From positions 1 to 64,000 of the IMG/VR virus record IMGVR_UViG_3300050821_004255: a stretch of 64,000 nt of DNA. The stretch is one strand, 5' to 3'. Shown here piece after piece: positions 1 through 31,094 of this stretch. Under the pieces are notes generated by a model. That model searched no databases and was not told the DNA's origin. It saw only the letters and a list, made by a program, of their open reading frames with translations. The position numbers and the translations under genes were made by a program. Position 1 is the first letter of the stretch; every line of letters begins with the position of its first letter. The DNA is from a virus.

Positions 1-2730
1 AATGGCCACTGGATCGTACATGTTGTACAGGGAGATTTCTTGAATCAACTCCCACTGTTTCACGTTTGCCCAACTGAATAAGGCTATGAGGTTTGGGGCG
101 TAAGTAGAGGGCGGCCAATATCCGGCGCACATATGACCATCGCAAACGGAAGGGTTAAAGAGAAACTCTGGACGATGGGTTGCAACAAAACCGAGCCCTT
201 CTCCCTTTACGTCATCAAAGATAGACGAGAAGAAGCTGTTCGCGGTGGTGTACTTGGTAAAGTTTGCAACGGTCTCCGTGCCCGACCAGGGCGAAGAGGA
301 GCTTCCTTTCTGGCAGCGATCAGCCGTCAAGGCAGTAGTCCCACCGCCCGCCGTTACGTGGATATACTCAGCCTTGTTTGCCGCTGTGAGGTCGAGAATC
401 TGCAAATAATCCCCGTTGGCGATATTGGTTCCTGACGCCACGCCTATACTTGCCGCCGTGCAATTATTGGGAAGAGGGGCCGTAAGCGCGGTAGCCGATG
501 TGGTGGCGTTGTAGCCGGCATAATCGGTGTAAGGTGCGAACCCGGTTAGAAAGTCGATACCGAACTGGTATCGTAATACGTCTTCGGGGGCCATCGTCGG
601 CAGCCAGCGCATCCAGTGGGCCAATTGCAAAGGGCGCGGCAGTTCACGCCAATTAGGTCCTACGTTAGAACTCCCACCCGGCCCCCATTTGGCATAGCTT
701 CCACCCGTACATCCAGTAAGCGTAGGAGTGCAGCCAGGGACCAGGAACCAGCGGAGATCCTGGTCATATGTTTCTTTCCATTGAAGACCAGCCCCACCTG
801 CCCAATTTCCGACAGCAGTTGACTCCAGGCCAATACCCGGAGTGTAGGGCGGGTCCCAGGGTCGGCCTGGACGCGGAATACTCAGGCTAGCGACGTATGC
901 GGCGACATCGTTGGCATTTTGCTCCGTACCGCCGCGCCCAAGAGTGGCGATTTTTTGCACGTATGGATGCCAATTAAAGTACCCTAGGTCATAAGCCGGT
1001 ACGTTCCCAGCGGCATGACAACTAACACACGTTCCGCCTGAGCCGTGATTCGGTATCCAGTCGTTACGATCCTTTAGCACTCCAGTTGTGAAAAACGTTT
1101 TTCCGTTGGTTACGTTTCCCCCGTAGCTAGGAAAGCTACTCGGATCGTAGGCCGTATAGCTCGTGGTAGGGATAAGCGAACGCGCCGCGAATGCCGCCGG
1201 TTGCGTCTGGATGGTTGTGTCTCTACTTGTTGGCACTGCATATGTTCCAGCCGGGACGCTCCAAGACCCAACCGTAGGCTGCACGATGGGAAACGTGAAT
1301 GTACTCCCAGAGATTCCCCCGATCACCCGTTTGCCGTTAAAGATCCACTGAGGGCCATCCATATCTCGAATGACGATGGTGTCGCCGTTATGCCATGCAG
1401 CCGGAACCGCGGAGTTAAGTGTGACGGTCGCAGTTGTACCGGAGACGGCGATGGCAGTGATCTTCTGCCAAGCCTGCACTAATGCGAAGTCGAGCAGCCA
1501 CCAGCCATGAACCACGCCGCTTGGACTGCCGGGGAATCGAAAGTTGAGTTGGTTAGTCGTACCCGCCGTGAGATCAGTTGAGCCGAGCGGCACAGCAACC
1601 TGGATGGCTTGCCGGATACCGCGTATGCCGCCGAACCAACGATCTTCATTGACATAGTAAAACTCAGAGACGGAGATGCCCGTGTCATATACGGTGGAAT
1701 CGGTTAACTGACAATCGACTCCAGAACAGGCTGCTATGGGATTAGTTATTGTAAAGCTGGTTGTTGAGGGGACCGTGAGGACGGTTTGGGTGTTGTTTAA
1801 CTGGGCGATCCCAAGACCTCCGCCAGTCTGTGTCGCACCATTGAACTGAATGACTTGGTTAGCCACGAATCCATGAGGGGTCTTAGTATTTACGAGGCAT
1901 GTTGAGCCACTTCCCGCGCAAAAGATATTCGTGACGCCGATATCTTGAAGCGTGTGGTAGGGTTTGCTGTTGACCGATACCATCGGCCAAGCCCCTTCCT
2001 TGGCGTTGAAGATGTTCATCCAAAGTTGCACGCTGGAGACATCTTCACCACCCGCAATCGAGACTGTCTTGCAAGTGGTGTAGTTCTCGAAGCCGTGAAC
2101 CATTGTGGGGATGGTGAACGGGGAAGCCTCACAAGGCTGCTGAACGAAGGGAAGCAGAAGTTTTGAACTTAGCTTGCGCGGCGTGAAAGGATTGCCAGAG
2201 GAATCCACGATCTCGTACCAGAGCTTTGGCTGCCCATACTCCTCGTTGATCGAGAGCGGGCAGGGATCATGGCAAGTTGTATCGGCCAATACAACAGCGG
2301 TCGCAGTAGGAGTCTGTGAGCATCCAGCGAATGCGATACTCACTGTAGGCGCAGAGGTGTAGTCGTTGCCACCGTTGGTTATCACCCAGGCCGAGATAAT
2401 CCCGCTGGTGATTGTCGCCTTCGCGTAGCCGTTGTTTGCCCACGTCGCCGTTGCCGAAGTACATCCTGAGCTTCCATTATTACCGATGGTTAGACTGGAC
2501 ACCCAGCGATGCTCCGGGAAGCCAGGAATAGAGACCCAGGCGAGGAACCGCTGGCTTGCGCCAACCCCAAGATTGACGACCTTGCTTCCACCTAGCGATC
2601 CGGAATTAGTCACCGTGATCGTGGACGCGCCCACGTCGCCGACGAGAGTAGTACCGTCCACGTAGGCAAAGGCTGGTAGTACCAACAGGGCTTGCGCCGC
2701 GAACGCGAACCGGAATATACTCAGTCCCAT
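1..2730 (-). CDS. Large secreted protein (>910 aa, runs off the window start) with beta-rich domains and a c-type cytochrome-like CxxCH domain
   Basis: Absent from ORF track (no stop in window). Hand translation from ATG 2730 is open to base 1: MGLSIFRFAFAAQALLVLPAFA-YVD (signal peptide) ... GNVTNGKTFF...GGTCVSCHAAG...YDLGYFNW...NANDVAAYVASL...PGRPWDPPYTPG. CVSCH at 1015-1029. Confidence 0.85.
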   Translation of the reverse strand, partial: MGLSIFRFAFAAQALLVLPAFAYVDGTTLVGDVGASTITVTNSGSLGGSKVVNLGVGASQRFLAWVSIPGFPEHRWVSSLTIGNNGSSGCTSATATWANNGYAKATITSGIISAWVITNGGNDYTSAPTVSIAFAGCSQTPTATAVVLADTTCHDPCPLSINEEYGQPKLWYEIVDSSGNPFTPRKLSSKLLLPFVQQPCEASPFTIPTMVHGFENYTTCKTVSIAGGEDVSSVQLWMNIFNAKEGAWPMVSVNSKPYHTLQDIGVTNIFCAGSGSTCLVNTKTPHGFVANQVIQFNGATQTGGGLGIAQLNNTQTVLTVPSTTSFTITNPIAACSGVDCQLTDSTVYDTGISVSEFYYVNEDRWFGGIRGIRQAIQVAVPLGSTDLTAGTTNQLNFRFPGSPSGVVHGWWLLDFALVQAWQKITAIAVSGTTATVTLNSAVPAAWHNGDTIVIRDMDGPQWIFNGKRVIGGISGSTFTFPIVQPTVGSWSVPAGTYAVPTSRDTTIQTQPAAFAARSLIPTTSYTAYDPSSFPSYGGNVTNGKTFFTTGVLKDRNDWIPNHGSGGTCVSCHAAGNVPAYDLGYFNWHPYVQKIATLGRGGTEQNANDVAAYVASLSIPRPGRPWDPPYTPGIGLESTAVGNWAGGAGLQWKETYDQDLRWFLVPGCTPTLTGCTGGSYAKWGPGGSSNVGPNWRELPRPLQLAHWMRWLPTMAPEDVLRYQFGIDFLTGFAPYTDYAGYNATTSATALTAPLPNNCTAASIGVASGTNIANGDYLQILDLTAANKAEYIHVTAGGGTTALTADRCQKGSSSSPWSGTETVANFTKYTTANSFFSSIFDDVKGEGLGFVATHRPEFLFNPSVCDGHMCAGYWPPSTYAPNLIALFSWANVKQWELIQEISLYNMYDPVAI

Positions 2731-2878
2731 GGTTGTGAGCGTATTAAAGCGATTGTGGTCTTGGATTCGGGTTCCGCGTCCCGCCGCCGTTTGCCCGCAG
2801 TGTTGCCACGAGATTGAGGAATTTGGCTGTAGTGGCTTCGGCGAATGCAAGCATTGCGGGGACTTTTACTAACTACTT

Positions 2879-3256
2879 TCACGGCTGTACCCTGACATTG
2901 TAAGTTGAACTCGTTAAGGCCAATGTCGCCAAAAGCGAACAGACGCGCACAGATACAGTGTCATTTGAGGATATCCAGGCATTCCACGAGGCTCCAACTC
3001 CAGGATCGGCTGTGGGCGTTACCGAAACGGCCATCCCAGCCCGCGCACCTGCTACGGAGACGGTCGTGGGATTCAAACAGGCGCCGATGCCGGTGATAGT
3101 TCCGCTAATGGCTGAGGTGGTCCCAATCAAGTGGATGTTTGTTATATTGCCAGTTTGGGCGCTCTGACCATGGAGATAAGTCTGCCCTAGGTTAATACAA
3201 ATCGCTAAGACGGTTGCGATCACAACTATTTGTGCGCAGCTTTTACCTTCTCTCAT
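2879..3256 (-). CDS. Small secreted beta-sandwich protein resembling a fibre-tip module
   Basis: N-terminal hydrophobic segment, then TVSVAGARAGMAVSVTP...WNAWISSNDTVSVRVC pattern typical of phage fibre C-terminal modules. Confidence 0.55.
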   Translation of the reverse strand: MREGKSCAQIVVIATVLAICINLGQTYLHGQSAQTGNITNIHLIGTTSAISGTITGIGACLNPTTVSVAGARAGMAVSVTPTADPGVGASWNAWISSNDTVSVRVCSLLATLALTSSTYNVRVQP

Positions 3257-3266
3257 TTCTTGTCCT

Positions 3267-5945
3267 TTACGGAATTGACGCTACACAAGCCGTGATATCC
3301 AGACCTCCGGTCAGTGTATTCGCATTCAGGTTTTGGTTTGCAGTGAGAGCCAACGTCAGGTTAGACCCAGCCCAGGTCGCGGACTTAAGGAGAACCGAAT
3401 CAGAGAAATTCGTATTACTGACAGCGGCAGTCATGTCATAACTACCGGGCAGGTAATATGTCGTACCCCCTACTGAATCGCCTATTGTGGCTGTGAGTGT
3501 AGTAAAGCCAGTCCCAGACCAAGCCGTAGTTGTTTTCACGCTTACCTTGGTTAATTTATACTTCGGCCCTATATACCAAAGTGGCACCGCCTGGGTAGTC
3601 GCGGCGGATATGGCAACACCTGGGCCGGATGTATGACCATTGGCGGCAATTGTCCAGTTCGTAGTCCCATTCACCCCTATCGAGAATCTATTACAGATTG
3701 CAATGTCTCCTTGCCCCACCGCCCGCATTACAGCAGGGGCGATATAGGTTGCTCCTAGAGCATTACCTGCTACTGAGGGATGCGTAGCATCCGCGTACCA
3801 AGTGGTAGTGTAATTACCGTTCTGGCCCATATTCGGGTCATTTCCCCAGAATGCAACCGCATCTGTTGCGAGTGTTCCGTTGAGAAAGCCAGCCGCGATA
3901 CTAGCGTTTAGCGTTCCACGGTTTGTATCCGTTGGAGCAACTCGCGAGAGTATGGTCACTGTAACGTTGTATCCACCATAACTGTGGACATTTGTTGAGT
4001 AACTTTGAGTACTAGAGTATGTCGCGGCAGCGGTTCCTCCAGTCGCCAGATCATTGCTACCCCCAAAGTTTACAACAACTGATTTTGCGGGAGCGTACTG
4101 CTTGATAAGCCCTTGAATGACAGTCGGCATGCGGGTGACCATAGTAGATAATGTCTGCCCGCCCAGTCCAAGCGGCTGAATATTGTAAGGAATTGGAATC
4201 AAATCCTGTATAAACTGTTGCCACGATCCTAGATACCCATTATTACCCTCATTGCTAGAAATCGAATCGCCGTGCGTAATCACCTGTGTCGATGTAGGAT
4301 TATTGTCTACGATACGCACTCCATGATCCAATAAAATACGTTGCTCAACATATTGTTCCATCGCAGCGATTTGGGAGGCAGTAAGCGCTGTAGAGAAACC
4401 TGCGCTATAAAGGTATGTACCTGACATTCCAAAGCCACCACCATCTGTAAAGTCCCCAACCATGAACCCTGCTGAAGTTGGGAATGTCAAAGCATTTGCG
4501 TTCATATAACCGCTAACCTCCCGCCCATTCTGCCAGATCCGATTGTTTCCACCGGGGAGTGTGAATGTAGTAACGGTTGGCCCAACACTCTTATTATTCC
4601 CCGCAACGGCTGCATCATTGCTCCCAGATGCGCCACAAAATAGAGTCAAATTACGCTGACACAATCCAAAGATAGGGTAGCCAACTCCGTTGGAAAACAT
4701 AGCCTCAGTCAGAACTTGATTGTTTGTAGCCGCAGCATAGATATTTGGAATATAGGCCACGACAATTGTCTTGATATTTGCTGGGATAGTGCCTGAAGTA
4801 TTCCCAGCGGGAATTGTATAGTTCTGTGTTCCGTCATCTGTGATACCGCTACCATCCGCTGCCCATGCCGGGGGATGGCCCGTAGAAAAGGTACCTGTAT
4901 TTCCGTTCCCACAACCGTCAGCTACGGTAGTGCCGGTCCCTTCAATGTATCGATGTTCCCATAGGCAGACCGCCGTTGCTGCCGCTGGCATAGTTGGTCC
5001 GCCGCCGCTCTGCGCTTGCCAAGTGGCAGTGGTGGAACTGGTTGCAGTGGGCACATAACCAATCGAAGGAGTGCCCGATACACCCACGCCGTTGATCTTT
5101 GCCACGGTGACCGCCCCGCCAACCGCAATCGTAGCGTCTCCACTCATCGCAACATCGGTTGCATGGAAGACTGTGTCAGTAGCTTGCAGGATTTTACCCG
5201 CAGTGGAAGGTGCCCCATAAGCCGTTGGAGATCCACTACGACTCCATAAAGCATCATCGTTGGTTCCGGTCGCTTTACCCATTACGCCGGTCGCATCCAT
5301 TAATAGGACCCCAGCAGGTTGAACAGAAGTCGGCAGGGCTCCAGCAGTTAGTTGTATTCCGCCACTACCAGCGCTGAGACTTGTGATAATCGGTCCAGTG
5401 AACGTGCAGCCGAAGAGTTGACAATAGAGGGAGTTTAGGTATGTGGTGCTAACATCTAACGTTGGCGTTGCCGTTCCGGTATTGCCGATCACAACCGAAC
5501 CGTTCGGACTGGTTGGAATCAGGGGGCTGAAGTTTCCCTGTTGCGGATTCTGTAACTCCCATCTAGCATTTGCCAAATCATAAATAGCGCACGCTTCCGC
5601 AAGTGTGCTAATATCGCCCGCAACAAGAGCGGACCCTGCCGGAGCCTTTACTATTACAGTCGCGGTAAGCCCGTTGGGTGAAAATGTTGGGTTTGCACCA
5701 GTGTTGAGTGCAGCCGGAAGCCAGCAGACCGAGAGGCCCTGCGTTAGGGACGTAATAGCCGGGGAGTATGTGGCTGTCTGTGCTTGTGCCGTTCCGCCGC
5801 CGGTTGCATGGAGCGCGGCTGCTGCTACTGTAGCGGTGAAGGTAACACCCGAACCGCCAGTTCCACCGCCAGGATTCACATTGGGAGGCTGGGCCATCAG
5901 GCCAACCGTAAGGCAGAAAACGGTTAGCGCGAGCCGTCGAAGCAT
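3267..5945 (-). CDS. Signal-peptide fibre-like protein with LamG-like and SGNH/GDSL hydrolase domains
   Basis: Probable start MLRRLALTVFCLTVGLMA-Q; phage-fibre-like N-terminal block (YSPAITSLTQGL...LVAGDI...YD...W.LQNP); SGNH blocks HGDSI, GLGGQT, FGGSND, DATHP. Confidence 0.75.
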   Translation of the reverse strand: MLRRLALTVFCLTVGLMAQPPNVNPGGGTGGSGVTFTATVAAAALHATGGGTAQAQTATYSPAITSLTQGLSVCWLPAALNTGANPTFSPNGLTATVIVKAPAGSALVAGDISTLAEACAIYDLANARWELQNPQQGNFSPLIPTSPNGSVVIGNTGTATPTLDVSTTYLNSLYCQLFGCTFTGPIITSLSAGSGGIQLTAGALPTSVQPAGVLLMDATGVMGKATGTNDDALWSRSGSPTAYGAPSTAGKILQATDTVFHATDVAMSGDATIAVGGAVTVAKINGVGVSGTPSIGYVPTATSSTTATWQAQSGGGPTMPAAATAVCLWEHRYIEGTGTTVADGCGNGNTGTFSTGHPPAWAADGSGITDDGTQNYTIPAGNTSGTIPANIKTIVVAYIPNIYAAATNNQVLTEAMFSNGVGYPIFGLCQRNLTLFCGASGSNDAAVAGNNKSVGPTVTTFTLPGGNNRIWQNGREVSGYMNANALTFPTSAGFMVGDFTDGGGFGMSGTYLYSAGFSTALTASQIAAMEQYVEQRILLDHGVRIVDNNPTSTQVITHGDSISSNEGNNGYLGSWQQFIQDLIPIPYNIQPLGLGGQTLSTMVTRMPTVIQGLIKQYAPAKSVVVNFGGSNDLATGGTAAATYSSTQSYSTNVHSYGGYNVTVTILSRVAPTDTNRGTLNASIAAGFLNGTLATDAVAFWGNDPNMGQNGNYTTTWYADATHPSVAGNALGATYIAPAVMRAVGQGDIAICNRFSIGVNGTTNWTIAANGHTSGPGVAISAATTQAVPLWYIGPKYKLTKVSVKTTTAWSGTGFTTLTATIGDSVGGTTYYLPGSYDMTAAVSNTNFSDSVLLKSATWAGSNLTLALTANQNLNANTLTGGLDITACVASIP

Positions 5946-5947
5946 GA

Positions 5948-6262
5948 TCAGGCCACCCACCATGTTACGAGAAACTTCATTCCACCCACATCGGCGTCTA
6001 GGAAATAATCAGCCAGTCGATTGGGGTTTTGACCAGGATAAGGCCCTGGAGAGGTAAACGAGGCTGTGATGACTGCTAGATCGTAAATGACGCCAACGCC
6101 GGTAGCTTTTGTGAGGTTGCTGAGGCCGACATAGCCGGAGCCTGCCGCATTCCCGTAGAGTTGCTTGACCAGAAAGGAACTGCACATGATCGTGCCGTCC
6201 GATGTCAAGGCTACGGGCGTACCTGCCGACGCGACCGTGACTATAGCTTGGTGAGGGGCCAT
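5948..6262 (-). CDS. Hypothetical small beta-rich (virion?) protein
   Basis: 104-aa ORF heading the leftward fibre operon, directly after a good promoter. Confidence 0.6.
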   Translation of the reverse strand: MAPHQAIVTVASAGTPVALTSDGTIMCSSFLVKQLYGNAAGSGYVGLSNLTKATGVGVIYDLAVITASFTSPGPYPGQNPNRLADYFLDADVGGMKFLVTWWVA

Positions 6263-6268
6263 GTCTAG

Positions 6269-8903: not shown

Positions 8904-9894
8904 CGTCGTCGTCCGTCTCAAAGCGTATCATACGCCCATTCTTGGAGCGAATCTCTGGCGTTGGCTGTTCAGCCAAGATCTTGTCGATTCGATCTAGATC
9001 CTCAGTTATGCTGGGTCTTCGTATGCCTTCTTTGGTCGTCCACGTTCTCCACTGAAACTGTGGTGGGGGACTTACATTAGCCTCGCGCTCCAATAGTGAC
9101 ACCGCCAACTGTATCTGGGCCTCTAAATCTCCCGATACGTCAAGCGACGGGTATGTGCCGGCCACAGCGCGTCTCCAAGCATCTAGTATGCTCAAGTCAG
9201 AAGCTGATCGAAGAATTGGCGTAGGCAACCTGAGCCGAATCTCATTCAACGCGTTTCGCTGATCGGGATCGAGTCCAGGGCCGTCCCACTCGTTCACGGT
9301 TTTGGGTTTCGTCTCTGGCGGTGGGTATGGCCGTGCCGATGGATGGCCGTCTGAAATGAAATTGCTCAGTGACGGAAATTCGCCAACGGGCGTTCCTGTC
9401 GCCTCACTCAGAAAGAACGATGTGCCATCCCAAACGGACATCAAATATGGATTTACATTGAAGTAATCCAGCGAGTCACGGTGGTAAAAGAGTGCGCCAT
9501 CTGTATCGTCGCCATGGAAGCTGCTTTTGCGTAGGCGAGTCATAAATACAGGAAGCCTTTGGTTTGGAAGCGGCTCATCAAAGCCATAGACGACGCCTCG
9601 GCGCGGAATCGCCAGCGCCGGGAACCATGAATCGCCCTGTTCGGTTGGATACAACTGCAAGATCGCTTGGGGCTTGATCTCATCTTCCATCGCCAGGACG
9701 GTGCCGTAGCCACTCTCCCCGATGGCGTCTTTCAACTTGGCGCGAATGTCTTTTGGATACTGAACAGCGATATAACGCCGGCGAGCTTCTAACCGGCGCA
9801 GGCCGTCGAAATTTAGCTGATAATTCAGCTTGAAAAGTTCGCGATGGATGTTGAATGCGCCCACTGAATTATTGTACGCTAAAATGCTGGACAT
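8896..9894 (-). CDS. Hypothetical protein with RSKNGRMIRFETDDDDD C-terminal tail
   Basis: 332-aa ORF. Confidence 0.65.
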   Translation of the reverse strand: MSSILAYNNSVGAFNIHRELFKLNYQLNFDGLRRLEARRRYIAVQYPKDIRAKLKDAIGESGYGTVLAMEDEIKPQAILQLYPTEQGDSWFPALAIPRRGVVYGFDEPLPNQRLPVFMTRLRKSSFHGDDTDGALFYHRDSLDYFNVNPYLMSVWDGTSFFLSEATGTPVGEFPSLSNFISDGHPSARPYPPPETKPKTVNEWDGPGLDPDQRNALNEIRLRLPTPILRSASDLSILDAWRRAVAGTYPSLDVSGDLEAQIQLAVSLLEREANVSPPPQFQWRTWTTKEGIRRPSITEDLDRIDKILAEQPTPEIRSKNGRMIRFETDDDDD

Positions 9895-9923
9895 GGCAAG
9901 GGAATCGTGGGAGAATATTGGGC

Positions 9924-10295
9924 ATGAACACGCGCCGTGGCTTCCTCTCTTCTCTTCTGAGTGCCTGCACAGCGCTGATCGTTAGGCCGACAATGGCAGT
10001 GGCCACCGTGCCGAGGAACATCGCTTGGGACTATTTTGGTAACGTTGGCGCAGAGAAAGTCCTTACCGGGATTTTTATCGTGTGCCACCCGGTCAAGTCT
10101 CCCGTTCGGATATCGTTATCGGTGAGCGATCCTCCGAGGCAAATTGCGGAAGAAATTATAGACTGGCAGGCACCTTTTCCGAAGAACATCTTTTACATCT
10201 CCTGTCCTCCAACGGTCTGTCGCAACGTGCTCGTAACGTTCGAGTCGGCAACGCCATTCACAATTTATGAGTCGCATCTGACTGAGGCTTCGTAG
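9924..10295 (+). CDS. Tat-signal exported protein
   Basis: MNTRRGFLSSLLSACTALIVRPTMAVA twin-arginine motif; TGGACA-N17-GAGAAT-N7-ATG upstream. Confidence 0.6.
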   Translation: MNTRRGFLSSLLSACTALIVRPTMAVATVPRNIAWDYFGNVGAEKVLTGIFIVCHPVKSPVRISLSVSDPPRQIAEEIIDWQAPFPKNIFYISCPPTVCRNVLVTFESATPFTIYESHLTEAS

Positions 10296-14522: not shown

Positions 14523-14595
14523 GCGGTAATGCAAAAAATTTCAGAAAAAGGAGAAATACTTACGCTAGCCACCGTGCCTGCGTAAGTGCTTGATT

Positions 14596-16891: not shown

Positions 16892-16895
16892 AGCT

Positions 16896-16913
16896 ACATC
16901 TGGATCAAGACGT
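16896..16913. repeat. 18-bp dispersed palindrome, copy 4
   Basis: ACATCTGGATCAAGACGT filling most of a 27-bp intergenic gap. Confidence 0.95.
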
Positions 16914-16918
16914 GACTT

Positions 16919-20457: not shown

Positions 20458-20607
20458 CGTTGAGCCCTCCACGGCTCTTCGCTGCGGGGCTTGCGCTGAG
20501 AGAAACAGCACAGGCCCCAACTCTCTTAGTTTACTACAGGCCAGCACGTACATTCAAGTAAAAAATGAACTTCCATTGCCGAAGTGCTTGGTGTATCATG
20601 TTCTTAC

Positions 20608-21777: not shown

Positions 21778-22422
21778 ATGCCAACTTATTCCCTTGCCGA
21801 ACTGGAAACTCTCGTGTGGAACCGGGTTGAGTCGAACACAATCCTGTACACTCAGCCGGAGGTCCAAGCCGTGATCTCTGAAGCGCTGCGGGTTACAAAT
21901 TTGTTCAGTGCGACGAATGAAGGCAGCGTGGAACTGCCCGGTTTCACGGTCAAGGGGCAGCTCGTCTATCAAACGCCGCTCGGGATGATCTTCCCAACGC
22001 GCGTGGCGTTCGAGGGCCGCGATCTGGACAAAGTTGGCTTGACGCGCATCGGTCAAGACATACGATCATGGGCAACCGATGACACGAACAACTATGGCCC
22101 AGTGGCCCGGTGGATTCCGATCGGCATCCAAGCATTTGCCATTCACCCTATCGATGCCGTAGGTGGGAATGATCTGACGGTGACTGGCGTGTTTGAGACG
22201 ACACCGATGACGAAGCCTACCGACGTGATGCAGCTTGACGACGAATTCGTGTCGCTCATCTCCGAGTATGGTGGCCACAGGCTTGTCTTGAAAGAGGCCG
22301 GCAAAGTCTTCACGGATGCTAGTGTCTTGATTCAGGCATTCTGGCGCGTCATGAAACGGCTAAAGCGCTGGCAGTCGTTCAAAGCGCCTCGATATTTTGT
22401 CCAGGTTCAGGAGCCAAAATGA
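21778..22422 (+). CDS. Adaptor/tail tubular-like protein
   Basis: MPTYSLAELETLV... adaptor-like layout, ~210 aa. Confidence 0.5.
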   Translation: MPTYSLAELETLVWNRVESNTILYTQPEVQAVISEALRVTNLFSATNEGSVELPGFTVKGQLVYQTPLGMIFPTRVAFEGRDLDKVGLTRIGQDIRSWATDDTNNYGPVARWIPIGIQAFAIHPIDAVGGNDLTVTGVFETTPMTKPTDVMQLDDEFVSLISEYGGHRLVLKEAGKVFTDASVLIQAFWRVMKRLKRWQSFKAPRYFVQVQEPK

Positions 22423-24359
22423 AGATCGTTCTTGCGATAGCTTTGGCGAGTATCTCGCTGGCTCAGAACCCTAATACCGCAGCCTATCCAGGTCGTGTTG
22501 CGACGGATACGGATCTTCTGGTCGCGACGAACAACGTGACGACGACGCTAACGATTCCTCTCGGCGTAGGCGATACGACGATCACCGTGGCATCGACTAC
22601 CGGCATCCAGGTTCCTACGGCTCTGTCGATCGATTCGGAGATTATCAAGGTCTGCTCAAAGGGCTCGACCACATTCACAGTTTGTTCTAGTGGTCGAGGA
22701 TTCGACGGAACGACGCCAACAACTCACAACGTCAATGCCGCCGTAAACTTCTTCGTTGTTAGCGATTTCCATAACCAAGCCGCCGCCGAGATCAAAGCCA
22801 TCGAAACGACGCTCGGGACCAACTTCGTTGCCCCTCCGCAGTTGTTATCGACATCCACTTACGACTTTGCCTCTCAAGCCCCAGGTGGCTCCCTTACTGC
22901 CGGCATAGGAGCATCTGTCACTTTGACGCCTTGTCCGCTGGGCGTTAACGGAGGTGACACTAACCACTATCTCTACATCTCTGGCGGATCAGGGACGGCA
23001 GAGGCCGTGTTGCTGGCTGGTGGCTCTTGTACATCAGGCGCAGCGACTGGTAGCGTGATTTTCACGCCAGCAAATTCCCACTCTGGGGCATGGACCATTA
23101 AGAGCGCTAGTTCTGGTATCAAAGAATGCTTTGTCCTGGCGGGCAATGGCGGCTCTTGCTATACACCAAGTGGAACTTCGAACTTTTATGCTCCGCTCTA
23201 TCTGGACTGGAATCAGTTCTCGTGGCGAGGCTCTGGCAATTCCTCGATCATTCAACAGCAATTTGTAGGTGATGGAATCATTGTCGGGCCTCCGGCTCTG
23301 ACTTCTACATACCTGACTGTAAGTGATCTGAACGCAGTCTGGGGGTTCGGTGTGGGAACGTATGGTTCATCTGGAGCCATCTGGGTGTTCAAAAATATCG
23401 GCCAAGGATTCTTCAATAACCTAAAAGCTTTTCTTGCATACGAGGGCTTTCGTTTCAACGGAGTCCAGCAAGCTACTTGGTCTAATATGCAATCCATTTC
23501 AGGGCAGATTGCCTACCACTGGGTGTCCAACCCAAGTTCTATAAACCTCGGAGGCGTTTGGAATAATCTGGAGGGAGAAACACAGGCAGGAGGAACCTGT
23601 TTGTTGGTCGAGCCGATCATCGCTGGAGTCTCAATAACGAATATCAACGTCGGCGGTCTGGCTGCGTATGGAATACGTATTGTGCCGAGTGCGGTAGGGG
23701 GCAGTTTCTTGAACGAACTAGTCGTTGATGGAGGATTCATAGACAGTTCTACCGTGAGCGCCTTGGCTGTGACATATGTGGCGGGTGGAGTAGAAACAGT
23801 TGCCAACACGATGCACTTCTCCAATATGAGAATGCACTCCATAGGTAGCGCTCCGACTGTTGATATAAGCCTGCTTGGAGGATATATGTTCTCCAATGTA
23901 TCAGTAGTCAATGCTGGCACTGGCAAGGCCATTTCTCTCGCAGGAGTCAGAAATTCTCAATTTACGAACTGCCTAATAGATGTCTCCTCGGTAGCCGCAG
24001 TTCCGGTAGCGTTTGTAGCTGGTACGGGTGGCGAAGTGAACAGCAATATCAATTTTTCTGGGAATCAGGTCGGCTTCAACGACATGACTCCTACGACTGC
24101 CCTGAATTCTGACACCAGCGCCGGCACGGGGATAAAGTTCTCCGCTAATCGGTTTAATGGTGCAATAGGTTGGAACCAGACCGGCGCGAATAATGTTTGG
24201 GATTTGTCAAATCAAGTTATTCCCTCGATCCCATTTTCTCTTTTGCCCGGTTTCGCCAATGGCTCTTCGCTATTTTGTAGGGATTGTAATTCTACCTGTA
24301 CGGCCGGATCAGCAACAGGCAGGACATGCTTCCGGGAAAATGGCGGTTGGACGCATTGA
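22419..24359 (+). CDS. Signal-peptide tailspike-like protein with right-handed beta-helix
   Basis: MKIVLAIALASISLA-Q; fibre-type anchor (HNQAAAEIKAIETTLG); N/G/S-rich beta-helix repeats. Confidence 0.7.
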   Translation: MKIVLAIALASISLAQNPNTAAYPGRVATDTDLLVATNNVTTTLTIPLGVGDTTITVASTTGIQVPTALSIDSEIIKVCSKGSTTFTVCSSGRGFDGTTPTTHNVNAAVNFFVVSDFHNQAAAEIKAIETTLGTNFVAPPQLLSTSTYDFASQAPGGSLTAGIGASVTLTPCPLGVNGGDTNHYLYISGGSGTAEAVLLAGGSCTSGAATGSVIFTPANSHSGAWTIKSASSGIKECFVLAGNGGSCYTPSGTSNFYAPLYLDWNQFSWRGSGNSSIIQQQFVGDGIIVGPPALTSTYLTVSDLNAVWGFGVGTYGSSGAIWVFKNIGQGFFNNLKAFLAYEGFRFNGVQQATWSNMQSISGQIAYHWVSNPSSINLGGVWNNLEGETQAGGTCLLVEPIIAGVSITNINVGGLAAYGIRIVPSAVGGSFLNELVVDGGFIDSSTVSALAVTYVAGGVETVANTMHFSNMRMHSIGSAPTVDISLLGGYMFSNVSVVNAGTGKAISLAGVRNSQFTNCLIDVSSVAAVPVAFVAGTGGEVNSNINFSGNQVGFNDMTPTTALNSDTSAGTGIKFSANRFNGAIGWNQTGANNVWDLSNQVIPSIPFSLLPGFANGSSLFCRDCNSTCTAGSATGRTCFRENGGWTH

Positions 24360-24360
24360 T

Positions 24361-25149
24361 ATGGGAGGATTCAACCAAGGCGGGTTCGGGACTTTTCCAT
24401 GGGGTGGGCCTCCCCCTGTACCTCCGACGCCGGGACCTCCGCAGCGTGTTGGGTTGCCGGTCTCGGAAATCTACCAACGAGTTTGCTGGGACTTGCTCGA
24501 AGATTATAATCTTGTGCTCGGAACAGTCACACCCGAGCAGTTCCTGGACGCTCTGGAGCAGGCCATTCTTGACTTCTGCCAAGAGACAATGATGGTCAAA
24601 CAAATCTTCACGCAAACGATCTTTTTAGCTCAGTCGCAATACATAGTCCCAGACGACATTTTGGAGCCCCAGGCCTGCTTCGTTGGCGGCGTGTTCTTGC
24701 AGCCTACGACGCTTGAAGAATTAAACAACGGCGAATACCAGTGGGCACGGCAAGTGGGACCGCCGCGAGCGTGGTTCCAGGACGGCTTGCCGGTTCACAT
24801 GATTCAACTGTTTCCAATTCCAGATTATACTGGCACGGTCATCGCTGGACCAAAGCCTCCGTTCGGAAATTATGGTGACTTCTTCCCTACGCAGCGCAAT
24901 CTGACAATCGTTGGCGGTGCAGCACCGTTGAACTTCACCGCGAATCCATTGACCCTACAGAGCAACCTGCCTGGGATTATACCGGACAGCTTTACGCCGT
25001 ATCTTGTCTACCGCGTTCTTGCTCGTATTTTCAGCCTTGATGGCGAGTGTCACGATTCGCAGAGGGCCATTTACTGCCAAAGCCGTTTTGAGGAGGGAAT
25101 TTCTCTCGGCTCTTCCGTTATGCTTGAGGCGATCAACGATGCCAAATAG
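24361..25149 (+). CDS. Adaptor-like protein
   Basis: Start MGGFNQGG; YIVPDDIL...GPPRAW...QLFPIPD...IPDSFTPYLVY adaptor-like pattern. Confidence 0.55.
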   Translation: MGGFNQGGFGTFPWGGPPPVPPTPGPPQRVGLPVSEIYQRVCWDLLEDYNLVLGTVTPEQFLDALEQAILDFCQETMMVKQIFTQTIFLAQSQYIVPDDILEPQACFVGGVFLQPTTLEELNNGEYQWARQVGPPRAWFQDGLPVHMIQLFPIPDYTGTVIAGPKPPFGNYGDFFPTQRNLTIVGGAAPLNFTANPLTLQSNLPGIIPDSFTPYLVYRVLARIFSLDGECHDSQRAIYCQSRFEEGISLGSSVMLEAINDAK

Positions 25150-27769
25150 AATTCTACGTCTGGATCAAGATGTAGCTTTGCTGCTTCTGCTGGCCTTACC
25201 GGCGATGAGCCAAATTGTCCCGACAGCCGTACAGGCAACGCGCGTCAGCAATATAACATCGGCTGCAACAGTGCTGGACAATAGATCGACCTATTTGCAA
25301 CTGAATGACTTTCATACATTCAATGTCAGCGGCTCAGGGACATGGTCGGTTCAGATTCAATACTCCGACACATCCGCGACTGGCCCATGGACAAACTTCC
25401 CAGAATCAGCGGCTCTCGTCACGAATACGACAGTGCCGCCAAGTGGATCAGGAACGGGATACCATGCGTGGATCAGGTTCTCGATAACCGGCACTGTATC
25501 TATCAATTATGCAGGGACGCGCGGTTTTTATGTCCCTACGTCTGGAGTCGCTGGAGGTGGGCCTCCGATCGCCGCCCCTTACCTGACGATGACTCCGAGT
25601 GCGCCACTCATAAATTCGTTCGCCATGAGCGGTCTTTCTACTGGCATCGTTAAAAATACGACGGGTACAGGCCAGCCGTCGATTGCAATGGGAACTGATC
25701 TGCCGACCGGAATACCGATAGCGTCGCTGGATACGGGAACCGTGACATCGACGGAGTACAACTACTTGCACGGGGTCACATCGGCAATTCAGACGCAGTT
25801 CAGCGGCAAAGTCGGCACAGGATCGTGCCCATCTCATCAGGTTGCCATTGCAACGATAAGTGCCGGCGTGACTTGCGTGCAGTTGGATGTCACGTCGAAC
25901 TATTTTGCGAATATAGGAACGACGACAACGGTGTTGCATGGCAACGCGTCCGGCAATCTATCTTTCAGCGCCGTAAATTTGCTGGCAGATATTGTGAATA
26001 CGCTTCCAAAGGCCAACAATCTTGCTACGGCAGTGTATACTGACCAATCCAATGTCTACACCGCTGGCACGCAAGACGTGCGGGGTGCGGTCCACTCTAT
26101 GCCAGCCGTGACAGGACTGTTCGCGGCACTTCCCGCCACCTGCACAGTTGGCGAGCAGTATTTCGCAACCGATAAACCGGCTGGGCAAAATCTGTACGGT
26201 TGCACGGCGACGAATACTTGGAATCTGGAAGGGCCTGTCGGAAGCGGTACCTTAACTAATGTTTCTAGCGCATGTGGGCTTTCTGGCGGCCCTATCACGA
26301 CTACCGGAACGCTCAAGATCTCTCCAACTGTTGTTGCGATATCTAGCACGACGCCAACGCTTTCAGCGGGCAATTGCGGCTTAACGAACCAGTTCACCGG
26401 AGCATCGCCAGCGGTCACGGTCCCCGCTCCAGGAGGTAGCTTCCCGAATGGCTGGTATGCCTACATTAGCTTCACAGGCTCCGGCACGCTAGTTCTCACT
26501 TCGGTTGCAAGCACGATCAACGGTTTCAGTTCTGTTTCTATAAATGCCGCGAACGGAGCGGGCGGCTTCCTAGTGAGCGATGGTACGAACTGGGAATACA
26601 TCTCCGGTGGGTCTTCCAGCGCTGGCGCAACTGCGATATTCGGTTATGATCTGGTCAATACGAGCGCCACGGTCCAGACTGTAGGTGGAGCGCAATGTAC
26701 CGCTTCGACGCCATGCAGCGTCGGTAAAGGCGCAGTCAACTCAGCCGCCTTGGTAGCTGGCGCGACTGCCACGCTAAGCGGCACGAGTGTAGGAGGAACT
26801 AATCAGGCGTGGTGGTACTACGATAGCCTGTTCACTTTGACGCTGGGACATAACGCTGCGACCACCGTCACCTGTAGCGGATGCACGACGGTGACCGGCA
26901 TTACCGGGTTCCCCGCCGATTCAATTCCGCTATGGAATACGACATTCACAAGCTTGGCGTGGAATTCGATTGTACCGGCGACGATGGATAGGCGCAGGGC
27001 TCAAACTGGCTCCGATGTCGTGGCTGGTCCAGGAAATGCCCAATCGGACGATCCGACTACCGGAATCCGCACGATTTCGACAGACCCCACGTTAACGCCG
27101 CGTTACTTCACAGGCTCTGGCACCCCGGCGCTAAGCTGCACGGCTGGCCGCGATTTTTACACCGATACGACTGGCATGCAACTGTATTTTTGCGATGCCA
27201 CAAATACGTGGAAATCGGCCAACAGTGCAGGTACGATGATAGTCCCGCTTCCGCTCGCTGGAACTGATCTATCCAGAGGTTATTATCCTGGCCCTGGAGT
27301 GATGACCAATGGAACTTTTGCTAATGCCCTTACTTATACCGGACCTGGCGCGATAGGGTCAAGCCCTCAGACAGTCGGTATTAGCTTAATTGTGGCGACG
27401 CCCAGTAGGTACGTGAAGGCTGAAATAATGGCGAGTCCCACGTGGAGTGCCGCTTCAGGGACAGTTGATTTCTCAGTGACAATTGAGGAGGGAGCTACTA
27501 ACACTACTGGATCGTGGAATTTAACCGGGTACGTCGGGTGTCAAGCCGTAGGCGCAATTCCCACATTTGGAACCGGCACCACTGTCAATGTAACCCCTCC
27601 GACTACTATAGGGTGGCCCTCCAAAGCTGTGTTTACGGCCTTGAATTTACCGGCGTCTTGCGCCCACGATCTACTACTTCAATTCTGGGTAGAGCGGGTT
27701 GCAGACACAGGAAGCCCAACTGGCGTGCCTTATCTGACCGAAATAACCGCAGTCATTCGCGGAAACTGA
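25139..27769 (+). CDS. Signal-peptide, Cys/Thr-rich fibre-like protein
   Basis: Start MPNRILRLDQDVALLLLLALPAMS-Q with GAGG RBS; LPATCTVGEQYFATD...NLYGCTATNTW-type modules occur twice. Confidence 0.7.
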   Translation: MPNRILRLDQDVALLLLLALPAMSQIVPTAVQATRVSNITSAATVLDNRSTYLQLNDFHTFNVSGSGTWSVQIQYSDTSATGPWTNFPESAALVTNTTVPPSGSGTGYHAWIRFSITGTVSINYAGTRGFYVPTSGVAGGGPPIAAPYLTMTPSAPLINSFAMSGLSTGIVKNTTGTGQPSIAMGTDLPTGIPIASLDTGTVTSTEYNYLHGVTSAIQTQFSGKVGTGSCPSHQVAIATISAGVTCVQLDVTSNYFANIGTTTTVLHGNASGNLSFSAVNLLADIVNTLPKANNLATAVYTDQSNVYTAGTQDVRGAVHSMPAVTGLFAALPATCTVGEQYFATDKPAGQNLYGCTATNTWNLEGPVGSGTLTNVSSACGLSGGPITTTGTLKISPTVVAISSTTPTLSAGNCGLTNQFTGASPAVTVPAPGGSFPNGWYAYISFTGSGTLVLTSVASTINGFSSVSINAANGAGGFLVSDGTNWEYISGGSSSAGATAIFGYDLVNTSATVQTVGGAQCTASTPCSVGKGAVNSAALVAGATATLSGTSVGGTNQAWWYYDSLFTLTLGHNAATTVTCSGCTTVTGITGFPADSIPLWNTTFTSLAWNSIVPATMDRRRAQTGSDVVAGPGNAQSDDPTTGIRTISTDPTLTPRYFTGSGTPALSCTAGRDFYTDTTGMQLYFCDATNTWKSANSAGTMIVPLPLAGTDLSRGYYPGPGVMTNGTFANALTYTGPGAIGSSPQTVGISLIVATPSRYVKAEIMASPTWSAASGTVDFSVTIEEGATNTTGSWNLTGYVGCQAVGAIPTFGTGTTVNVTPPTTIGWPSKAVFTALNLPASCAHDLLLQFWVERVADTGSPTGVPYLTEITAVIRGN
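25156..25173. repeat. 18-bp dispersed palindrome, copy 7
   Basis: ACGTCTGGATCAAGATGT at a gene junction, inside a signal-peptide n-region. Confidence 0.95.
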
Positions 27770-28092
27770 TGCGGCTCAAGACTGCACTGGCGGCACTCAT
27801 CTGGCTATTGGTATTGGCGTGCTGTTTCCTTGCTACCACTTCGCAAGCCGCGGCTATTGGCTCTCAAGGTACGTGCCTCCAGTGTGACCCCTTCCAGGTC
27901 CAACAGTTACCTTTCGGTCCTTGGCCCGGAGATTTATCAACGTTGTCCCAAATTTTACGGACAATCTCTTCGGAAAGCGTCGGAAGTGGTTTACACTTAG
28001 GATCAGTCACGTTGCCTCCTTCGCAGGCGATGTGGTTAGAGTCGTCACGAGCGTTGAAGCGCTTGTGGCGACTCCTCTTGAGGTTAGCATGA
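27769..28092 (+). CDS. Small secreted protein
   Basis: MRLKTALAALIWLLVLACCFLATTSQA; TGATG and ATGA coupling on both sides. Confidence 0.5.
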   Translation: MRLKTALAALIWLLVLACCFLATTSQAAAIGSQGTCLQCDPFQVQQLPFGPWPGDLSTLSQILRTISSESVGSGLHLGSVTLPPSQAMWLESSRALKRLWRLLLRLA

Positions 28093-31000
28093 AACGTGAG
28101 TTATTCCTACTGTTGTTTTCTTCATGTTACGCTAACTGCGCAACTTACTATGTGGCGAGCGCTTCAAGCACCCCAGCCGGGAATGATGCCAATCCTGGTT
28201 CCGTAAGCCAGCCATTCTTAACTCTCGGCCATGCGGTCAATTCCGTAGCTTGTGGCGACACGATCATGATCGTAGCGGACACTCACTATGTCCAAGGCGA
28301 TGCCAATCTACCGTACTTTGCGAATTGTTCACTAATAACCACAGTGCAATCGTCGCTGCTTTCCCGTTTTGCCCCAGACGGATGGCGTACGATTCCGGCG
28401 CAGACTTGTCCCGACCCAACAGACGGAGTAGGTCCGTGCGATTATGGCAAGTTGCAGCTTGTCGCGCAGGGGATTGAATGGCATGCAGAGAAGCATGGCA
28501 GCGCCGCTAGCACGTACGGAACGTGCGAGATAAGCAATATTACGGGCAATACTCTGACGCTATTCGATGCGAGCGCCGGGCGCTGTGCCGCCTCTCTGCC
28601 AAATCTAGCTAACCGTAGTCAGGTTGAGTTTCAAATCGACACTGTGAATGGTTCCGGCTGTGGAAGTATTTGCGATTCAAGTCAACCGCCTGTCGGCATT
28701 ACCGTTCTCCAGCACTACTATGTACGGAGCTGCTCGGCGGGATGCGGGACCGGAGGCTCTACTCTTCAATTGGAGGATGTTGCCGGGAACCCTATAACCA
28801 TCGGGGCGTGTAGTTTGCCGAGCTGTTACTTGCCGGCCCTCGCCATCTCGGAACCGCTTCAGTTTACGGCTGGATCGCCAACGATTACTTCCCCCGATAC
28901 TTTCACATTCACCAACGGCACGCCTGTCGCGTTGTCATCGGTTGGGATGCAACTCTTTGGCTCTTTGCCTATTGGCTTCCTACCCGATACGCCCTATTAC
29001 ATCAAGATCATAGCCGGCCGCAATTTCCAACTTTCCACCGATCCGGCAGGGCTTAACATCGTTACGCCAAGTTCAGTCGGCTTCGGGCCGATTGCCATGG
29101 CCAACATAAATGTTCCTCATCATTGGGCATTTAAGGGGCTCGAACTCGTTGAGTTTCCAGCTTCGTTCCTAGGCGCTTATGTGTTGGGAGATGGTAACGA
29201 GACCAGTGCCATCGGGACGATTCACCACATCGAGATAGCGCATAACTGGATACACGATAATCCAGGCGACACCAACGGTCTCGCGCGTGGCATCGCTGAA
29301 AATGGTCGGTACGTAAACATTCACGATAACTGGTTTGACGGTATTCGACGCGCCGATTTGGCAGAAAGCCAAGCAATCGGCGGATGGGCCAGCGCTGGGC
29401 CGACCTGGATCACGGACAACTTCATGGAGTCCGGCACGGAATGCACTCTTTACGGGGGTAGCGGGAATTACGCCGGGATCAGCAACGCAAATAAGCTATT
29501 CCAGTTCAACTTTTGCTACAAGCCACCGTCCTGGAAGCAGTCCTCCAACACTGGAGCTCCGTCGGTTAGTGTCGATCCTTGCTGGTGGGATAACACGGAC
29601 CCGCGGCACTCAGGAGGGGAGTGGTACAAAAACACGGCCAGCGGACAGGTCTATCAATGCGGCTCCGATTTTACATGGCACACGACGACCTCTCCTCTTC
29701 CGAATCCGTACACGATTAAAACGATGTTCGAGAGTAAGAGCCTTAGGAATTCTTTGTACTATGGCAATCTAATCAAGTACAACTGGGCGGCAGCGCAAAG
29801 CGGGCAGGCGTTTTCAACGCACATGAGCTACGATAGCGGCCCTGGCATGGCGAACGATCATATCATCATTCAGAACAACAAAGCCTTGAATGTTTTCAGC
29901 GCCATCACCCAGGACTCTCATTGCCTGCAAAGCCCAGCCGTTCCGTGCGTCCTGAATCTTCCAGGATATGATTCAATAGTAAACAATCTTCTAGTTAGCA
30001 GCCCTTTAGCTTGTGGGGTGTCTTTTGCAACCGGCTCCAACACCTGTCAATGGTCGCTCGCCGCTCACACTAACGTCGGATATCCGGCCATCAACAATAT
30101 ATTCAATCACAATACCTGGGTGCTCCCAGATGGAGCTTCAGGAGTTGGGCCAGCTCCTGGATTTTCAGCCACCTCGTCGATCGCCGATCCTGTTGACTAT
30201 TTACATTTCGGTGCGGGCTGTACGGACTGGTTGCTGTTTGATTTGTGGACCTACAAGAACTCGATCACCGGCTACGACTTTCAAGGGACCTGTCTTAACG
30301 GTGGCGGCCAAATCGCAGCTAAATTCACCCACTTCACCGGCAAGAATATTGTGCTGACTGGATCAAATGCAGGTATCAGCTATGCCAGCCCAGGCGCTAC
30401 CAACACCTTTACGCCTTTCGCCCGACCAGCTAACAATGCAGCGGTGCAATACGTCAACGCTGCGAATGGTGATTACCACCTTGCGTCTACCAGCCCGTTC
30501 AGTGCGGCGAATGGATCTGCGACATTCATTGCTGACGACGGCACCGACCTCGGCGCTAACATAGACGCCATAAACTGCGCTACCTCCGGTGCGGCTACCG
30601 GCACACCTCCGTGTGATGCGAGCCTCCAGCGCTCCATCGGAAGCAGAAAGCTAGTCTTTCGTTATACGGCCCCGACGCTCGAAGTCTACACGTTATCGCT
30701 CTATTCTGCTGCCGCACCGACCGCAGGCAACTTTGTGGCTGGCTTGCCCGATTCGGATGCCGCTTCGGTCAGCGATGGACTTCGCCGCGAGATTCCCATC
30801 ACCGGGCTTGCCGCTGTCTCAACGCATTATTGGTACAGGCTGGCGAATACATCCGGCAGCGTGGCGATGGTGGGGGACTTTTGGACGCGCGCGGTCGGCT
30901 CAGGCACCCTAAATTGGCCGTTCGGATATCCTAGCGCTACGGCGGTCCAGTATGGGCTGGACAAAGCCTGCACGATTAGTTGTGTCACGCTTGGCGCATC

Positions 31001-31094
31001 CACTCAACCGCTGGTTCCTGTACCGAGCAATACCTTGATCTATGCCGCTCCGGTGGCTAATCCTAACGCTGTTACCATTCTCGTGACGCCGTAG
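28089..31094 (+). CDS. Secreted-type beta-helix polysaccharide lyase/depolymerase-like protein
   Basis: MKRELFLLLFSSCYANC-ATYYVA...GNDANPGS..QPFLTL..AV..V.CGDTI; HNWIHDN repeats; C-terminal GDYHLASTSP...DGTDLGA. Confidence 0.7.
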   Translation: MKRELFLLLFSSCYANCATYYVASASSTPAGNDANPGSVSQPFLTLGHAVNSVACGDTIMIVADTHYVQGDANLPYFANCSLITTVQSSLLSRFAPDGWRTIPAQTCPDPTDGVGPCDYGKLQLVAQGIEWHAEKHGSAASTYGTCEISNITGNTLTLFDASAGRCAASLPNLANRSQVEFQIDTVNGSGCGSICDSSQPPVGITVLQHYYVRSCSAGCGTGGSTLQLEDVAGNPITIGACSLPSCYLPALAISEPLQFTAGSPTITSPDTFTFTNGTPVALSSVGMQLFGSLPIGFLPDTPYYIKIIAGRNFQLSTDPAGLNIVTPSSVGFGPIAMANINVPHHWAFKGLELVEFPASFLGAYVLGDGNETSAIGTIHHIEIAHNWIHDNPGDTNGLARGIAENGRYVNIHDNWFDGIRRADLAESQAIGGWASAGPTWITDNFMESGTECTLYGGSGNYAGISNANKLFQFNFCYKPPSWKQSSNTGAPSVSVDPCWWDNTDPRHSGGEWYKNTASGQVYQCGSDFTWHTTTSPLPNPYTIKTMFESKSLRNSLYYGNLIKYNWAAAQSGQAFSTHMSYDSGPGMANDHIIIQNNKALNVFSAITQDSHCLQSPAVPCVLNLPGYDSIVNNLLVSSPLACGVSFATGSNTCQWSLAAHTNVGYPAINNIFNHNTWVLPDGASGVGPAPGFSATSSIADPVDYLHFGAGCTDWLLFDLWTYKNSITGYDFQGTCLNGGGQIAAKFTHFTGKNIVLTGSNAGISYASPGATNTFTPFARPANNAAVQYVNAANGDYHLASTSPFSAANGSATFIADDGTDLGANIDAINCATSGAATGTPPCDASLQRSIGSRKLVFRYTAPTLEVYTLSLYSAAAPTAGNFVAGLPDSDAASVSDGLRREIPITGLAAVSTHYWYRLANTSGSVAMVGDFWTRAVGSGTLNWPFGYPSATAVQYGLDKACTISCVTLGASTQPLVPVPSNTLIYAAPVANPNAVTILVTP

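Follow-up and report, generated by a model that had tools for sequence, protein, structure and literature searches.

Sec-type leaders on fiber- and tailspike-like proteins of a podovirus-type phage suggest export and oxidative folding, with possible attachment to the virion after export

The first 64 kb of IMG/VR record IMGVR_UViG_3300050821_004255 (hereafter the window; the record is linear, 78,037 bp long and rated 77% complete) make up most of the genome of a soil-type, short-tailed phage of the podovirus kind, whose capsid has the HK97 fold and whose adaptor is of the SU10 type. Seven of its proteins, among them the tailspike- and fiber-like products of the tail operon, begin with leaders of the Sec/signal peptidase I (SPI) type. 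According to textbooks, tailed phages are assembled wholly in the cytoplasm. Judging from the leaders, their retention in homologs, the export style of the likely host and the paired cysteines, we consider it likely that these proteins are exported by Sec, cleaved and folded oxidatively with disulfides. That the leader-bearing proteins of the tail operon then attach to the virion is a tentative proposal, and one that we extend even less readily to the genes of the left arm. A sequence-only reading of this DNA had proposed both, namely that exported fibers fold oxidatively and that they attach at or after lysis; the first part is well supported in silico, and the second is a deduction from gene context and predicted folds.

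We designate each leader-bearing protein by the window position at which its gene starts. On the plus strand, the leaders are MKIVLAIALASISLA before QNPN in 22419, MPNRILRLDQDVALLLLLALPAMS before QIVP in 25139, MRLKTALAALIWLLVLACCFLATTSQAAA before IG in 27769, and MKRELFLLLFSSCYA before NCAT in 28089. On the minus strand, they are MGLSIFRFAFAAQALLVLPAFA before Y in 2730, MLRRLALTVFCLTVGLMA before QPPN in 5945, and MREGKSCAQIVVIATVLAICINLG in 3256, whose long hydrophobic region (h-region) may be a signal anchor. The calls combine conservation in homologs with a hand-written rule for the n-, h- and c-regions, not a trained predictor such as SignalP; the rule demands a short positive n-region, an uncharged h-region of 8 to 20 residues, and small residues at −3 and −1. 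Six of the seven fit cleanly; the exception is 3256, with its long h-region and an unfavorable residue at −3. All seven signal-peptide-like N-termini listed by the sequence-only reading are thus present and Sec/SPI-like, and the Gln that it had noted at the predicted +1 position of several is found in three (5945, 22419 and 25139). Twin arginines are absent from the seven. Lipoprotein and type IX secretion routes were set aside, as Pfam scans revealed no Por_Secre_tail or other C-terminal sorting domain; the h-region of 28089 includes a Cys, yet its homologs have plain A-x-A sites followed by A, which counts against a lipoprotein.

The start codons of the leader genes are fixed by gene packing and by Shine-Dalgarno sites, AGGAG- or GAGG-type sites preceding several of them. 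The starts of 22419 and 28089 overlap the preceding stop as ATGA and that of 27769 as TGATG, 25139 and the adaptor gene share 11 nt, and the starts of 5945 and 3256 lie 2 and 10 nt, respectively, past the upstream stop. The start of 2730 is less constrained, with a gap of 148 nt upstream, but its sole alternative, a TTG at 2850, lies on the upstream side and would leave the hydrophobic segment within the translated part. No conserved start was found downstream of the hydrophobic segments of these genes. Two of the genes contain an in-frame ATG two residues before the cleavage site, at window position 5897 in 5945 (MAQPP...) and at 25205 in 25139 (MSQIV...), and some gene callers use such an internal ATG near the cleavage site as the start of homologs (e.g., P0030).

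The major capsid protein (MCP), the adaptor and the nozzle-like protein lack them, as had been noted from the sequence, and so do the conserved tail-module products of 20584 and 21778 and all of the ejection proteins. Nine proteins in the record reach 550 aa or more, and the five of these that have a leader are exactly those without a conserved counterpart in all relatives. This distribution, together with the retention of the leaders in homologs, argues that they did not arise by chance. Retention amounts to 15 of 16 for 28089 (14 of its 15 homologs, at 23 to 51% identity), to nearly all of 55 for 25139, and to 28 of 40 for the fiber module of 5945, and the leaders keep their position across dozens of homologs at 30 to 50% identity.

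The cysteine content of the leader-bearing proteins agrees with the earlier remark that the fiber-like genes encode many paired Cys. The mature parts contain 18 (2730), 2 (3256), 10 (5945), 12 (22419), 14 (25139), 2 (27769) and 27 (28089) cysteines, an even number in six of the seven, often arranged in close pairs. Their density is 1.9 per 100 aa, versus 0.54 per 100 aa in 22 signal-less proteins, and the ejection proteins of 814 and 1517 aa have no Cys at all.

The family of the tailspike-like protein 22419 offers a comparison between fibers with and without leaders. A full HMMER search yielded 2,460 cluster representatives; N-terminal forms were classified for the best 149 of these, 136 of which have the N-terminal domain (N-domain) at their start. 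Three forms occur among the 136: 43 proteins have a leader, 43 are leaderless and begin at the domain itself (MATPTPVFPAAVATD...), and 50 have a 25-residue, nonhydrophobic extension with FG and SLGKP motifs (R.F..FG..G....SLG[KI]P; P0072, P0105, P0123 and 47 others, as well as L061:9923-11680). The adaptors' own N-termini have FG-rich motifs similar to those of the extension form. The predicted mature start of the leader forms lies 4 to 6 residues before a conserved (F/Y)PG, as does the start of the leaderless forms, and the N-domains of leader forms are 40 to 50% identical to those of leaderless fibers. At least 11 switches of leader state can be counted on the N-domain tree, and 7 of these fall on supported branches. 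The pair Cys172/Cys204 is seen in 29 of the 43 leader forms versus none of the 93 others, and Cys79 is present in 22 of the 43 versus none of the 93; conversely, a lone Cys217 is found in 78 of the 93 signal-less forms versus 11 of the 43 leader forms. Because the covarying pair is limited to leader forms, we regard these sequence patterns as good evidence that the leader-bearing members would live in an oxidizing compartment.

Members of this family also occupy tail modules elsewhere. In three Acidobacteriota loci, the fiber gene adjoins a PF24175 adaptor gene (39 bits in L060, 28.8 in L061 and 30.8 in L062); two of these fibers have a leader and one has the extension. One such adaptor-adjacent locus is embedded in a contig of 311 kb that also has a P22-type coat gene, which identifies it as a prophage. 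The tail modules of the prophage loci L060 and L062 have no fiber candidate other than the leader-bearing protein. A fourth locus (L063:9992-14876), which belongs to a siphophage-type prophage in a Bryobacteraceae metagenome-assembled genome (MAG), encodes a leaderless, anchor-only protein of 250 aa followed by leader-bearing proteins of 534 and 761 aa, which looks like a split arrangement of a cytoplasmic anchor and exported distal parts. The family occurs in one or two copies per genome and is present in 5 of 401 sampled Acidobacteriota genomes, a low copy number and rarity that indicate a phage-borne family rather than an expanded cellular one.

The 22419 protein itself (22419 to 24359, plus strand; 646 aa) was modeled with AlphaFold2 at a pLDDT of 84, using 66 family sequences. 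The model comprises the leader (residues 1 to 15, with a helix at 2 to 14), a compact N-domain (30 to 135) and a right-handed β-helix (245 to 575). Foldseek and profile searches match the β-helix to the A-module of the alginate C5-epimerase AlgE4 (1e-14), to GH87 glucanases, to the lyase RbmB and to many phage tailspikes; a search of 50,697 phage records for cultured relatives of 22419 gave no match. Modeled alone, the N-domain reaches a pLDDT of 95. Its best match is 8jov_1, a chain of the GP4 portal-tail complex known to us by its chain label only (Z 11.4; root mean square deviation of 1.9 Å; 102 of 116 residues), and the next four matches are likewise phage virion chains, with Z values of 10 to 11, unrelated folds scoring at most 7.6; the profile also matches tail-tip proteins of phages Chi and JBD30. 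By these matches, the N-domain is predicted to be of a kind that docks on the tail.

In the tail operon, the leader genes are tightly interleaved with conserved, signal-less tail genes and translationally coupled to them, in line with the arrangement described by the sequence-only reading. Two conserved tail-module proteins precede 22419: one (20584 to 21771, plus strand) shares 37 to 45% identity with its counterparts in the relatives G001 to G005 introduced below and has weak tail-protein PHROG matches, and the other (21778 to 22422, plus strand; 214 aa) ends on the stop that overlaps the 22419 start. The SU10-type adaptor follows (24346 to 25149, plus strand; PF24175 at 7e-14, 53.2 bits against a cutoff of 27) and has homologs in G001 to G005. 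Next is 25139 (25139 to 27769, plus strand), a modular fiber-like protein of 876 aa. Its leader and first ~115 residues recur at 36 to 44% identity in G001, just after the adaptor, and in G002, with unrelated distal parts; a conserved N-terminal module joined to a variable distal part is the usual pattern of receptor-binding proteins. The next two leader genes are 27769 (27769 to 28092, plus strand), which encodes 107 aa (78 mature) with a CxxC motif (CLQC) and is wedged between two leader-bearing fiber genes, and 28089 (28089 to 31094, plus strand), which encodes 1001 aa. In 28089 and 14 close homologs, the leader is followed by ATYYV, a motif typical of β-helix enzymes; β-helix signals are seen in 28089 and in its G001 counterpart, and 28089 matches PF22842 weakly. 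From its sequence, the small 27769 protein may serve specifically as a helper of redox chemistry or assembly in the periplasm, and a leader-bearing open reading frame (ORF) of 113 aa occupies the analogous place in G001 (70774-71115). The conserved 1544-aa protein that closes this series (31102 to 35736, plus strand; 30 to 34% identity in G001 to G005) gave no match in the PDB, Pfam or PHROGs, and we call it nozzle-like from its position, its conservation and an N-terminal motif only.

The left arm (1 to 5945, minus strand) encodes the other three leader-bearing proteins. The 5945 protein (3267 to 5945; 892 aa) combines a fiber module (residues 52 to 141) with an SGNH/GDSL esterase-like domain (residues 559 to 730; PF13472 at 31.4 bits, just below the cutoff of 32.9). 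The fiber module is common to 39 proteins, with 28 forms bearing leaders and 12 starting with classical leaderless fiber N-termini of the MAFNGSG... type. The 3256 protein (2879 to 3256; 125 aa) has a hydrophobic N-terminus, a β-sandwich look and no family match. The 2730 protein (1 to 2730) exceeds 909 aa, its C-terminus being cut by the contig end, and its cysteines stand in close pairs. At residue 568 it has a CxxCH motif (CVSCH) within a cytochrome c-like stretch (residues ~535 to 635; window 811 to 1173, minus strand). The cytochrome c match is weak (Pfam Cytochrom_C at E 0.41, limited to the C-terminal helix, DVAAYVASL), the PDB sequence search was empty, and Atlas features give 0.90 to DUF1924 and cytochrome c clusters; should heme be attached at this predicted motif, that would call for export independently of the leader. 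No homolog of 2730 was found in G001 to G005.

Five MCP-related IMG/VR records (G001 to G005) were taken whole for comparison with the studied record (G000); G001 is rated 100% complete by CheckV. It encodes four leader-bearing proteins of 841 to 1513 aa, three on the minus strand in synteny with window 1 to 5963 and one directly after the adaptor, and G002 encodes three. Of the 22 MCP-related loci, seven more carry such proteins, and leader-bearing large ORFs were seen in L016, L017, L018, L021, L022 and L024. The sole other large unassigned ORF of G001 is a ribonucleotide reductase, so every fiber candidate in this complete genome except the nozzle-like protein has a leader, and no leaderless candidate was found there besides that protein. 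The more distant relatives G003 to G005 have few leader-bearing proteins and lack leader-bearing fibers, and their nozzle homolog grows to 2367 to 3012 aa versus the 1544 aa of the window; host recognition may be built into these giant homologs. A signal-less protein of 1497 to 2023 aa follows the giant nozzle homolog (G003:50839-57942; G005:41207-50245, minus strand).

The host is probably an Acidobacteriota bacterium, by indirect assignment. A pattern scan of one genome per species, covering 185,579 species, led to four tblastn-confirmed relatives of the 22419 family, all of them in Acidobacteriota MAGs (Acidobacteriales, Terracidiphilus and two Bryobacteraceae). A Bacteroidota host, an idea suggested by the Gln at +1, was set aside in view of the Shine-Dalgarno sites in use and of the four out of four Acidobacteriota matches. 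By a crude rule that involved no trained predictor, [AGS]Q stands at the end of the h-region in ~40% (20 of 49) of the signal-like ORFs on two Bryobacteraceae MAG contigs (L064 to L083; 400 kb), and the shared feature makes the Gln at +1 of the phage leaders look like host style. The trend resembles the Q-rule of Bacteroidetes, which has been described for that group only, with Acidobacteria unmentioned (PMC5837995).

From these elements, we propose the following sequence of events, whose chances as a whole chain, from preprotein to docking at lysis, we place a little below even. Each variable fiber- or spike-like protein would be made as a Sec preprotein with a cleavable SPI-type leader on a packing-fixed start. 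Export would bring it to the periplasm, where it would be cleaved, in many cases with Gln at the new N-terminus, and would fold with disulfides, and the small exported proteins 27769, with its CxxC, and 3256 may act as periplasmic helpers. Fiberless particles would meanwhile be built in the cytoplasm, and at least 22419 and 25139 would be receptor-binding or depolymerase appendages. Particle and appendage would meet only once lysis opens the inner membrane, the mature N-domains docking at the adaptor-nozzle region. The proposed docking resembles the in vitro attachment of P22 tailspikes or T4 fibers to fiberless particles. Such a route could provide disulfide-hardened appendages for life in soil and a polysaccharide-cutting activity in the envelope as the progeny leave. 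We favor attachment because of the coupling within the tail operon, the N-domain shared with leaderless fibers in the same slot, the GP4 fold and the lack of a leaderless candidate in G001. The broader idea that widespread soil phages finish their virions outside the cytoplasm, with leaders gained and lost within one fiber family and matching Cys pairs gained and lost each time, is more doubtful.

Several observations weigh against attachment after export or against parts of the scheme around it. The left-arm genes lie outside the tail operon and are transcribed apart from it, so that position next to the adaptor and nozzle-like genes holds for 22419 to 31094 and for the family loci L060 to L062 but not for 1 to 5945. 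Receptor binding could instead fall to the nozzle-like protein, which is far longer where leader-bearing proteins are few. Among phylogenetically independent pairs (n = 7), the Cys moves with the leader in 2 to 5 and essentially never in reverse, which is not significant (P of ~0.13 to 0.5). Searches of the 77%-complete record for lysis genes turned up no holin, endolysin or spanin family, and a full-text literature search found no published account of secretion signals on tail fibers. The host call is indirect as well: the capsid gene gave one weak match only in the 401 Acidobacteriota genomes, a near-absence from which we conclude that the capsid-related clade is probably lytic.

The strongest competing explanation, which we consider somewhat unlikely, is that the proteins are exported but never become virion parts, acting instead as free enzymes or binders in the periplasm, on the surface or in the medium. 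They would cut or modify host exopolysaccharide or lipopolysaccharide, helping progeny to escape, destroying receptors, or stopping superinfection or debris trapping, while the nozzle-like giant would provide host recognition for the particle. The analogs would be soluble phage depolymerases or WceF of Pantoea stewartii, a tailspike-like trimeric β-helix with a phage-type head domain that is exported over the inner membrane and acts on exopolysaccharide (PMC7949094). WceF also speaks against reading an anchor domain as proof of a virion protein, as this cellular enzyme, exported by the twin-arginine translocation (Tat) route, has retained a P22-type head domain (PMC7949094). The same explanation gains from the β-helix of 22419, closest by profile to secreted polysaccharide enzymes (AlgE4, GH87 and RbmB), from the esterase-like domain of 5945, from the separate transcription of the left arm and from the enlarged nozzle homologs of relatives with few leader-bearing proteins; signal-bearing phage proteins have, moreover, been taken as host-surface modifiers (Matrishin 2023; PMC10367356). 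What it leaves unaccounted for is the kinship of the leader forms with leaderless fibers, whose N-domains are 40 to 50% identical and sit in the same adaptor-adjacent slot, the virion-anchored receptor-binder pattern of a conserved N-module with a variable distal part, the translational coupling to the adaptor and nozzle-like genes, and the signal on the only fiber candidate of the L060 and L062 tail modules. The sequence-only reading had named soluble or surface factors as its fallback, and this option remains a live rival to attachment.

Less probable is the existence of two pools or of an unused leader, with either a precursor that largely stays in the cytoplasm late in infection or a leaderless isoform from an internal start entering the particle in the usual way and only a fraction being exported as free enzyme. 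The in-frame ATGs at 5897 and 25205 would provide such starts, and the at least 11 changes of leader state imply that the N-domain works in both settings. However, no such ATG exists in 22419, 27769 or 28089, nor at that place in the 22419 family, and, to judge from the signal-specific Cys pairs, folding of the functional pool would take place in an oxidizing compartment. An artefact of wrong starts or of chance hydrophobic N-termini on cytoplasmic proteins is very improbable: the calls were made without a trained predictor, a loose version of the rule also flags the doubtful ORFs 16439-17146 and 52505-53323 (both minus strand), and 2730 has its 148-nt upstream gap and alternative TTG, but the starts are fixed by overlaps with preceding stops, the leader position is conserved in dozens of homologs at 30 to 50% identity, and the upstream alternative of 2730 still includes the hydrophobic segment.

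Attachment after export, if it occurs, would set these proteins apart from the podophage tailspikes that they otherwise resemble. The fold matches place 22419 with P22 gp9, Sf6, LKA1 gp49, AP22 gp54 and the GP4 fibers, which share an N-domain, a neck and a right-handed β-helix; like the window genes, the tailspike genes adjoin adaptor and nozzle genes and combine a conserved N-terminus with a variable distal part. Those tailspikes, however, have no secretion signal and are folded and attached in the cytoplasm, whereas here a Sec leader and additional paired Cys are read from sequence and models. The tail module also follows the SU10 type (Kuravirus-like), with its PF24175 adaptor and its fibers interleaved with the adaptor and a large nozzle-like gene, but the capsid, nozzle and fibers have no detectable sequence similarity to those of cultured phages. 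As an exported β-helix active on exopolysaccharide, WceF provides a possible working analogy, although it is encoded on the chromosome in an exopolysaccharide biosynthesis cluster and carries a Tat signal, whereas here the genes belong to a phage tail operon and have Sec-type leaders without twin arginine. Phages of Porphyromonas gingivalis encode SPI-leader proteins that expose Gln, following the Bacteroidetes Q-rule (PMC10367356; PMC5837995). The window proteins share these Gln-exposing SPI leaders and the match to the host's export style, but the Porphyromonas cases are capsid, spanin and small genes of no known role, with no mention of tail fibers, whereas ours are fiber-like and probably belong to an Acidobacteriota phage. 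A 2026 survey reported signal peptides on 5% of prophage carbohydrate-active enzymes (CAZymes), structural proteins having been excluded beforehand (PMC13507307). What is new here is the three-form fiber family, the leader-specific Cys pair, the GP4-type N-domain and the Acidobacteriota context.

If the receptor-binding proteins of many uncultured soil phages are exported and fold oxidatively, virion completion would depend on the host Sec, LepB and Dsb machineries and on a lysis step, creating a new point of host control and defense. Recombinant depolymerases or fibers of such phages would need periplasmic expression. Annotation pipelines would misfile such genes, either by taking a signal peptide as evidence against a structural protein or by counting them as auxiliary secreted CAZymes. 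The three N-terminal forms with their leader-tracking Cys pairs would constitute a clean natural experiment, directly testable in the laboratory.

Other features of the window complete the picture of this clade. The MCP (14590 to 15669, plus strand) matches phrog_9953 at 2e-21 and has relatives at 49 to 71% identity on 22 IMG/VR contigs, several of them 94 to 103 kb long; its best match among cultured phages is Myxococcus phage Mx9, at 25%. An ejection protein with a transglycosylase segment is encoded at 38719-41163, and a 1517-aa polyvalent protein has a ddrB-ParB domain. The replication arm contains DnaB and DNA methylase genes, and no tRNA genes were found in the window. Two further ORFs have leaders or leader-like N-termini: one at 19338 to 19757 (plus strand; MTKLFMGFLLVLLMSA before QTAD, cleaved between MSA and QTAD), for which there was no family match, and one at 61845 (minus strand). 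A Tat-like N-terminus with RRGFL (MGMNTRRGFLSSLLSACTALIVRPTMAVA) is found in the ORF 9855-10295 (plus strand), with a possible TTG start at 9918; read from there, the ORF encodes 125 aa at the head of the structural arm and has no family match. The replication arm also holds an adenylosuccinate-synthetase-like gene (62475-63665, minus strand; PF00709 at 2.9e-57), and a strong AT skew of ~0.2, with A over T on the coding strand, runs across window 38000 to 46200.

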